Source of the DNA: Escherichia coli | Lineage (GTDB): Bacteria > Pseudomonadota > Gammaproteobacteria > Enterobacterales > Enterobacteriaceae | DNA: 64,000 nucleotides | Assembly (NCBI RefSeq): GCF_003334405.1 | Contig: NZ_QOWM01000004.1 | Reading direction: 5' to 3' (one strand) | The notes under the pieces: generated by a model | Seen by the model: only the letters and a program-made list of their open reading frames with translations | The model's database searches: none | What the model was told of the DNA's origin: nothing | In this document: one piece after another, positions 22,599-22,833 of the stretch | How the letters are laid out: the number at the start of each line of letters is the position of its first letter | Numbering within the stretch: position 1 is the stretch's first letter | Translations under genes and position numbers: made by a program

Positions 22599-22833
22599 TT
22601 CCCCTCCCGGGAAATAAAAGATGAGCACTTTCTATTCTGCATTGCCGCTAAGACTTTTCCCATCACTTCGGGGACAATATTTTTTTATCAAAACGTCGCT
22701 TTGATAGAGAGTTTTTATCAAATATGTGAATAATGCAGAAAATGGCATTTTGGACTTTTCACAGGGTCTGGTTGCGCAGGTATAGTAATACTTACAGCGT
22801 ATTAAAGACGTTACGGGAAGGAGTAGGTATAGA

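Follow-up and report, generated by a model that had tools for sequence, protein, structure and literature searches.

A conserved three-box module and an invariant A/T block between the divergent mdtH and rimJ promoters of Escherichia coli

Introduction

The multidrug efflux gene mdtH and the ribosome-modifying gene rimJ stand back to back on the Escherichia coli chromosome, separated by a 235-bp spacer that carries an inverted repeat and a direct repeat. We analysed this spacer (22599-22833) in a 64,000-nucleotide stretch of E. coli DNA (contig NZ_QOWM01000004.1 of assembly GCF_003334405.1), referred to here as the window. Judged by their conservation across related species, the repeats are functional control DNA lying between two divergent promoters and not a product of chance, and we propose with moderate confidence that they form part of an upstream activating region shared by both promoters.

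Over-expression of mdtH contributes to fluoroquinolone tolerance, and rimJ heads a gene cluster that ends in murJ, the gene for the essential lipid II flippase. In the material that we searched, neither promoter has a well-supported regulator.

Results

The mdtH coding sequence, which encodes an MFS multidrug efflux transporter, occupies 21390-22598 on the minus strand with its ATG at 22598, and rimJ occupies 22834-23418 on the plus strand with its ATG at 22834; both assignments come from the open reading frame list and the RefSeq annotation of the identical stretch of E. coli K-12 BW25113. RefSeq places yceH, yceM and murJ downstream of rimJ and annotates no feature in the spacer, which has a GC content of 39% against 51% for the window. 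The 301 bp around the repeats are 100% identical to BW25113, and every one of 5426 complete E. coli genomes contains the spacer, at an identity of at least 99% in 5414. The window is thus E. coli core chromosome.

Transcription start sites (TSSs) for both genes are listed by Kim et al. 2012 (PMC3415461), at NC_000913.2 1124577(-) with 58 reads for mdtH and 1124745(+) with 20 reads for rimJ. The upstream sequences printed in that table match the window and place the start sites at 22626 on the minus strand and 22794 on the plus strand, 168 bp apart, so that the leftward PmdtH gives a 5' untranslated region (5'UTR) of 28 nt and the rightward PrimJ one of 40 nt; a separate start site is mapped for murJ in the same work. 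Placed from the mapped TSS, the mdtH -10 element reads CAGAAT (-13 to -8; 22634-22639, minus strand). It is preceded at a 17-bp spacing by a -35-like TGGGAA (22657-22662, minus strand) that matches consensus at only 3 of 6 positions, and from this weak -35 we infer that mdtH would depend on upstream elements. The best match of a promoter scan (10/12) is the rimJ sigma-70 promoter at 22758-22786 on the plus strand, with a -35 of TTCACA (22758-22763), a 17-bp spacer and a -10 of TATAGT (22781-22786), consistent with the mapped TSS. A rimJ promoter reporter has been described as resembling ribosomal promoters in lag phase (PMC3918108).

Between these two promoters lie the repeats, within a sequence that reads GGGGACAATATTTTTTTATCAAAACGTCGCTTTGATAGAGAGTTTTTATCAAATATG. 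A sequence-only reading of the window had described a TATCAAA/TTTGATA palindrome at 22687-22706 with a 6-bp spacer. Its arms are present, at 22686-22692 and 22700-22706, but they are separated by 7 bp (ACGTCGC, 22693-22699) and the palindrome spans 22686-22706. The direct repeat reported with it is exact: the 11-mer TTTTTATCAAA occurs on the plus strand at 22682-22692 and again at 22712-22722. The second copy holds a third heptamer (22716-22722), which pairs with 22700-22706 as a second perfect 7-bp inverted repeat, TTTGATA-N9-TATCAAA. There are therefore three boxes, S1 (plus, within the first copy of the direct repeat), S2 (minus, the inverted partner of both others) and S3 (plus, within the second copy), in a direct-inverted-direct arrangement with centres at 22689, 22703 and 22719. 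The centres are 14 bp apart from S1 to S2 and 16 bp from S2 to S3 (17 in most other genera), whilst S3 repeats S1 directly at a distance of 30-31 bp, which corresponds to three helical turns and the same face of the DNA. Relative to the mdtH and rimJ start sites, S1 lies at -63 and -105, S2 at -77 and -91, and S3 at -93 and -75. The two 30-bp segments compared by eye have only the 11-mer in common, and we rejected an origin of the direct repeat by duplication.

Could such repeats simply arise by chance in an A/T-rich spacer? In 1000 dinucleotide-preserving shuffles of the 235-bp sequence, a perfect inverted repeat of at least 7 bp appeared in 17%, a direct repeat of at least 11 bp in 0.4%, and the two combined in 0.1%. 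Across the 64-kb window there is a single instance of the palindrome pattern where 0 are expected, and the bare heptamer is common (20 copies against 8.4 expected). Since a few thousand intergenic regions per genome leave room for chance cases, these statistics are not decisive in themselves, and conservation was therefore examined.

We collected rimJ loci from 80 species representatives of the Enterobacteriaceae, of which 71 have a divergent upstream mdtH and a spacer of 192-360 bp. These 71 spacers were aligned with the window using MAFFT (72 Enterobacteriaceae in all) and scored for identity to E. coli, taking four-fold degenerate sites of rimJ (mean identity 0.46) as the neutral reference; conservation figures refer to these 72-80 species. 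Phylogenetic footprinting of this kind had been suggested as a check on the sequence-only reading, and it shows all three boxes to be conserved in related species: mean heptamer identity is 0.97 for S1, 0.84 for S2 and 0.86 for S3. By contrast, positions 22694-22699 of the palindrome spacer are free to vary, their identity of 0.36 falling below the neutral baseline; 22693, which ends a larger block, is conserved with it. Mean identity over the whole mdtH-rimJ spacer is 0.69. Because the boxes are conserved far above neutral sites while the DNA between the palindrome arms drifts, the repeats are confirmed as more than a chance observation. The argument for chance can also point to the exact 11-bp repeat, which occurs in Escherichia only. 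Set against it are the degree of conservation, a rigid spacing in 72 species and a core kept across families, and the footprint effectively refutes this explanation.

The most strongly conserved element is not the palindrome itself. The longest run at 95% identity or more in the spacer is 19 bp, starts at 22673 and lies within an A/T-rich block, GACAATATTTTTTTATCAAAA (22673-22693; -47 to -67 of mdtH), whose mean identity is 0.98 and whose right-hand edge is S1. Identity is 0.86 both for an extended S2 (22700-22709, minus strand, consensus yTTGATwGAG) and for S3 with its flank (22712-22722). The unit common to the three boxes is approximately TyyWATC(A/G)AAA, and its conserved positions include the G/C bases of ATC/GAT, beyond plain A/T content. 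S2 varies to ACGATAGAG in Klebsiella and TTAATCGAG in Salmonella. The exact E. coli form of S3, like the 11-bp repeat, is limited to Escherichia, and most genera carry TTyTCATCGAAAA or TTTTCATCAAAA. For comparison, the promoter elements have mean identities of 0.96 (mdtH -10), 0.98 (mdtH -35), 0.96 (rimJ -35) and 0.99 (rimJ -10), and they fall within further conserved blocks, TATTCTGCA (22633-22641), CTTTTCCCAT (22654-22663), TTTTCACAG (22756-22764) and AGGTATAGTAA (22778-22788). The conservation profile and alignment also pick out a block (G/A)AAAATGGyAT on the plus strand at 22738-22748, approximately -56 to -46 of rimJ, which is a possible contact for an activator or for the C-terminal domain of the RNA polymerase alpha subunit (alpha-CTD); AAAATGGC from this rimJ-proximal block is also found in Pectobacterium.

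These elements keep a rigid spacing. If the start of the block is taken as zero, the mdtH -10 lies at -44/-45 in nearly all of 75 loci, and nearly all species have the mdtH -35 at -22/-23, the rimJ -35 at +79 to +82 and the rimJ -10 at +102 to +105; the offset of S2 (+24) is invariant. In species with long spacers the added DNA is confined to the mdtH 5'UTR, where it separates the ribosome-binding site from the -10, so the module remains intact in them. Such spacers (278-360 bp) occur in Citrobacter koseri, Lelliottia, Huaxiibacter, Pseudenterobacter and others, the extra 40-125 bp being GC-rich; C. amalonaticus has extra DNA at the same place.

Loci in which the module is incomplete are also informative. 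In Intestinirhabdus S2, S3 and the rimJ-proximal block are deleted, and AATATTTTTTAT is kept, its distance from the mdtH -35 being unchanged. In five species of Kluyvera mdtH is replaced by a TatA/E-like gene; only a degenerate CCTTTTTTATCAC is left, and S2 and S3 are lost. At least four Kluyvera loci have a divergent short gene beginning MGEISVTKLLVVVVLFVLVFGTKKLGSLGADLG (TatA/TatE-like; one was translated by eye), one further locus has different upstream DNA, and the Kluyvera rimJ -35 is TTTTCATTGG.

A deeper comparison took in nine more distant Enterobacterales, reached through RimJ homologues. The inner part of the block, ATATTTTTTTATC (22677-22689), is found followed by G or A, as ATATTTTTTTATC(G/A), in Pectobacterium, Rahnella, Serratia, Photorhabdus and Providencia, all of which have mdtH. 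Pantoea and Erwinia have neither mdtH nor the core. Two genera depart from this pattern: Hafnia, without mdtH, has the core as a variant CTATTTTTTTATCGT, and Edwardsiella, with mdtH, lacks it, and the link between core and mdtH is therefore strong rather than absolute. Pectobacterium, Rahnella and Photorhabdus have a CA[GA]A[AC]T -10 for mdtH at 38-39 nt from the core, as in E. coli, whilst in Serratia and Providencia -10-like hexamers could be placed by hand only roughly, 35-40 nt away. Between the core and the rimJ ATG the distance is variable in the distant genera, from -62 to -227. Being kept with mdtH at a fixed distance from its -10, and at a varying one from rimJ, the core therefore goes with the mdtH promoter and takes its position from it. 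None of these nine genera outside the Enterobacteriaceae has S2, S3 or the A-run after ATC; on this distribution S2 and S3 are evidently a later addition in the Enterobacteriaceae lineage.

In Rahnella and Hafnia, approximately 60-125 bp upstream of rimJ, the sequence TATTTTTTTATCGTCAAGCCG.G......ACTGGCAGAAT occurs in both. It looks like a rimJ promoter (-35 TCGTCA, extended -10 TGgCAGAAT) abutting the T-tract core, and in these two genera both divergent promoters may make direct use of the core.

What, then, is the block? UP elements of strong sigma-70 promoters such as rrnB P1 have the consensus nnAAAWWTWTTTTnnAAAAnnn and lie at -59 to -38. We scored about 40 transcription factor and sigma factor consensus strings on the spacer against shuffles, the strings not being drawn from a curated library, and the UP consensus was the top match among them. 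On the plus strand, 22674-22695 agrees with the full UP consensus at 13 of 14 informative positions, a score reached in 1% of shuffles, and the distal subsite AAAWWTWTTTT fits 10 of 11 on the minus strand from 22684 to 22674, which is -58 to -48 of mdtH. The block resembles UP elements in its A/T composition, in the place of its distal subsite relative to a mapped TSS upstream of a weak -35, and in its spacing to the core promoter, which is fixed. It differs from them in that the full match is on the strand opposite to mdtH, that only the distal subsite position fits, and that it is invariant over about 20 bp with flanking ATC and GAC, beyond what an UP element usually needs.

The block is also the main A/T tract of a region of predicted curvature. 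In a wedge-model calculation the segment 22640-22780, which takes in the DNA between the two -35 boxes, is predicted to be more bent than 99.4% of shuffles, with a ratio of end-to-end to contour length of 0.836 against 0.949 in shuffles, and ranks at the 1.3 percentile of 141-bp tiles of the window. Among orthologues, at most 5% of a segment's own shuffles were as bent in 59 of 75 segments. Its T7, T5 and T4 tracts lie approximately 32 and 43 bp apart, in approximate helical phase. The most curved 141-bp tiles predicted in the window are elsewhere, in the bssS-dinI spacer (18341-18520), which holds ATATTTTTTTAGC (18399-18411), one mismatch from the mdtH-rimJ core.

Curvature of this kind raises the prospect of a structural site, at which phased A/T tracts would form a static bend bound by H-NS, Fis or IHF and the ATCRAAA units would be by-products of tract phasing. 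The region resembles curved upstream activating DNA with phased A-tracts: the tracts are in approximate phase, the predicted curvature ranks among the top 1-2% of the window and is found again in most orthologues, and the spacer is poor in GC. In the distant genera the core on the minus strand reads CGATAAAAAA, which resembles the H-NS nucleation motif, TCGATAAATT. However, shuffled sequences match the Fis, IHF and H-NS consensus just as well (p = 0.91, 0.35 and 0.97, respectively). The best IHF match (consensus WATCAANNNNTTR) is 8/9 at 22716-22728, and its TTR element lies in non-conserved columns. Curvature also leaves the conserved G/C positions of the module unexplained, and no bend is predicted for K. 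pneumoniae, Kosakonia cowanii or Photorhabdus, although the boxes or the core are kept there. We therefore hold a purely structural site to be doubtful.

The sequence-only reading had taken the repeats for a dimeric operator with an extra half-site. This is borne out in part. All three heptamers are under purifying selection while the spacer between the arms drifts, which is the classic footprint expected of putative protein-contacted half-sites, and the G/C positions of ATC/GAT are kept. What does not carry over is the centrality of the palindrome, the deepest conserved unit being GACAATATTTTTTTATCAAAA and the exact 11-bp repeat a feature of Escherichia. In its strongest form the operator explanation would have one specific dimeric or tetrameric transcription factor bind S1-S2 (centre -70 of mdtH) and/or S2-S3 (-83 of rimJ, -85 of mdtH) and control the pump and the rimJ operon together, with the likeness to an UP element incidental. 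The palindrome pattern is unique in the window, and the S2-S3 dyad is centred at 22711, almost exactly at the midpoint of the two start sites (22710). Inverted and direct repeats midway between start sites, with a spacing that preserves helical phase, recall the shared operators of divergent promoter pairs. However, neither mdtH nor rimJ encodes a known regulator, and half-site spacings of 14 and 16 bp are atypical; centres 14 and 16-17 bp apart, and not about one helical turn, argue against a simple one-turn dimer operator. Furthermore, S2 is substituted in Salmonella, Klebsiella and Phytobacter, and S1 never is. Since the block at -47 to -67 of mdtH matches the UP consensus, S1 may be conserved for a reason other than a role as half-site. 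Beyond the Enterobacteriaceae only the T-tract core remains. A second match to the block of about 20 bp or more was not found in E. coli genomes, so that it is single-copy at the sensitivity of BLAST.

Searches for a candidate regulator weigh against this explanation. None of the roughly 40 consensus motifs fits the module. On the spacer they gave nothing convincing for CRP, FNR, IHF, Fis, the marbox, Lrp, ArcA, Fur, PurR, NagC, OxyR or TyrR, nor for CpxR, PhoP/B, OmpR, KdpE, NarL, H-NS, SdiA, EvgA, Nac, ArgR and others. For CRP, FNR and the marbox, as for IHF, Fis and H-NS, the matches stand at chance level. Matches to BaeR (14/18, p = 0.01, 22726-22743) and RcsB (11/14, p = 0.05) fall on poorly conserved bases and were rejected. 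The supplementary files searched from an iModulon paper and from a chromatin immunoprecipitation (ChIP)-exo survey of predicted but uncharacterized E. coli regulators name neither gene, and searches of the literature on rimJ and mdtH together, on systematic evolution of ligands by exponential enrichment (SELEX) and ChIP, and of the Reg-Seq preprint yielded no mention of mdtH or rimJ. Taken together, a classical operator as the whole explanation is unlikely, though the likeliest of the alternatives considered.

One regulator has in fact been linked to this spacer, so that the sequence-only reading, which knew of no assigned regulator, is right only in the sense that none is convincingly assigned. 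In avian pathogenic E. coli, His-tagged LsrR, the autoinducer-2 (AI-2) quorum-sensing repressor, was reported to shift a biotin-labelled probe whose primers define exactly 22599-22833 (PMC7597812; Poult Sci 2020). In the same report unlabelled probe at approximately 10-fold competes and mdtH mRNA is higher in an lsrR mutant. The evidence is weak: the shift required LsrR at 1-8 'umol' as printed (which we read as micromolar), the binding site is unmapped, and the text searched mentions no competition by unrelated DNA. The same group included the same probe among those tested with QseB and reported binding for marA only.

Two features of sequence could favour an LsrR operator of mdtH at this site: GACAAT is similar to AACAAT, an element of the p-lsrR box, and a loose motif of paired T-tracts has been put forward for LsrR in a 2026 paper. 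The mdtH-rimJ spacer also resembles the lsrR-lsrA spacer in being A/T-rich and divergent. The p-lsrR elements AACAAT and AAGATTTAA are cited in PMC5137460, and we read both operators of the lsrR-lsrA spacer as TGAACA-N21-TGTTCA dyads that include them. In the mdtH-rimJ spacer, however, this dyad is absent; the best matches are 9/14 and 8/12, and 58% of shuffles equal the former. The gene lsrR is present in 4198 of the 5426 complete E. coli genomes and missing from 1228, which keep the spacer unchanged, although this comparison is a weak test given how little E. coli diverges. With the operator dyad absent and the spacer unchanged in genomes without lsrR, LsrR is a very improbable explanation of the conserved boxes.

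Other interpretations of the repeats were tried and rejected. S1-S3 do not form a cluster of DnaA boxes (TTWTNCACA), because TTATCAAAA, CTATCAAAG and TTATCAAAT all lack the C at positions 6 and 8. A match to the DnaA-box consensus, TTATTCACA, does lie next to S3 (22725-22733, minus strand), with 8 of 8 informative positions, a score reached in 4% of shuffles. It is only 40-70% conserved, its TGTGA being retained by Citrobacter, Enterobacter and Lelliottia and missing from Klebsiella and Salmonella, and it is probably incidental. A search of Rfam for structured RNA at a permissive threshold returned only a meaningless microRNA match (E = 7.8), and the single-strand DNA fold of 22630-22745 is ordinary (z = -1.07), giving no sign of a cruciform or hairpin. 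Nor do the TTGATA-like hexamers make an additional promoter: the scan gave only a weak TAGAGA-18-AATAAT whose -10 is not conserved. Matches to sigma-24, -28, -32 and -54 consensus sequences in the spacer were no better than in shuffles.

Several further repeats occur around the promoters. A perfect 9-bp inverted repeat, TTCTGCATT (22635-22643) and AATGCAGAA (22732-22740), flanks the three-box module with its arms 88 nt apart and the left arm overlapping the mdtH -10; it is probably coincidental, because the right arm is not conserved outside Escherichia. Direct repeats GACTTTTCCCA (22652-22662) and GACTTTTCACA (22753-22763), 101 bp apart, each overlap a -35 region, that of mdtH on the opposite strand and that of rimJ on the same strand, and TTTTC[CA]CA is kept at both in nearly all species. 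In Enterobacter and Klebsiella, the sequence aligned to 22748-22763 is TGTCACTGTTTTCACA or TGTTGCTGTTTTCACA, which overlaps the rimJ -35 and matches 8-9 of 10 positions of the CRP core TGTGA-N6-TCACA; this CRP-core-like sequence is centred near -38.5 of rimJ and is degenerate in E. coli. Finally, on the mdtH mRNA strand at 22597-22615, a perfect 7-bp inverted repeat, ATTTCCC-N5-GGGAAAT, runs across the Shine-Dalgarno sequence GGGAGGGG and the AU of the start codon. It is approximately 90-100% conserved and is predicted to fold in the RNA as an 8-bp hairpin of -13 kcal/mol, which would block access of the ribosome, although its energy is ordinary compared with shuffles (z = -0.46).

Discussion

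Our preferred explanation, in which we place moderate confidence, is a composite one: the conserved DNA would be a shared upstream activating region of two divergent sigma-70 promoters, made up of an UP-like A/T tract together with sites for a DNA-binding protein. The invariant block would recruit or position the alpha-CTDs of RNA polymerase and so set the basal strength of PmdtH. For the three ATC(A/G)AAA boxes, S1-S3, the most likely role is as contact sites of a protein, which could be a specific regulator or a nucleoid-associated protein. Because the S2-S3 dyad centre nearly coincides with the TSS midpoint, such a protein would sit midway between the promoters; it could influence both PmdtH and PrimJ. 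The repeats, the start sites, the conservation, the rigid spacing, the UP consensus match and the predicted curvature are what the analysis shows, and from them we propose the binding of the alpha-CTDs, the occupancy of S1-S3 by protein and the direction of regulation.

A number of observations weigh against this composite region. Only the distal UP subsite fits, because the proximal position at -46 to -38 of mdtH (22664-22672) is GC-rich and variable. UP elements are rarely invariant at every base over some 20 bp, and the unchanging GAC and ATC point to base-specific contacts with some other partner. The literature searched gives no alpha-CTD dependence here and no protein mapped to S1-S3. 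Hafnia and Edwardsiella break the association of the core with mdtH. The aligned species share ancestry, so that counts of conserving species overstate the number of independent events, and neither the wedge parameters for curvature nor the consensus strings come from a curated library, which makes the curvature figures approximate.

More speculatively, the T7 block and the three ATC(A/G)AAA boxes might together be the operator of a regulator conserved in the Enterobacterales that couples the MdtH pump to the rimJ-yceH-yceM(-murJ) operon. We consider this improbable. YceH (UPF0502/DUF480), encoded directly after rimJ, is a candidate by position only. Structures of it are available (5VYV, 5U8J and 3BZ6), and we found no functional literature on it. 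Its fold we presume to be winged-helix-like.

The promoters, their start sites and the claimed interaction with LsrR were already known. The three-box module and the invariant A/T core were not found described in the material searched, and they are a new example of a familiar promoter-upstream architecture. The footprint tempers the published claim that LsrR controls mdtH directly. It also defines approximately 50 bp between the promoters that are as conserved as the -10 and -35 boxes themselves, an exact target for mutagenesis and pull-down. Should the region prove to be mostly an UP element and a bend, it would be ordinary promoter architecture. If instead a specific factor binds the three boxes, a conserved regulon member would be added to a well-studied genome, and it would be of greater interest still if that factor couples an efflux pump to the rimJ-murJ cluster.

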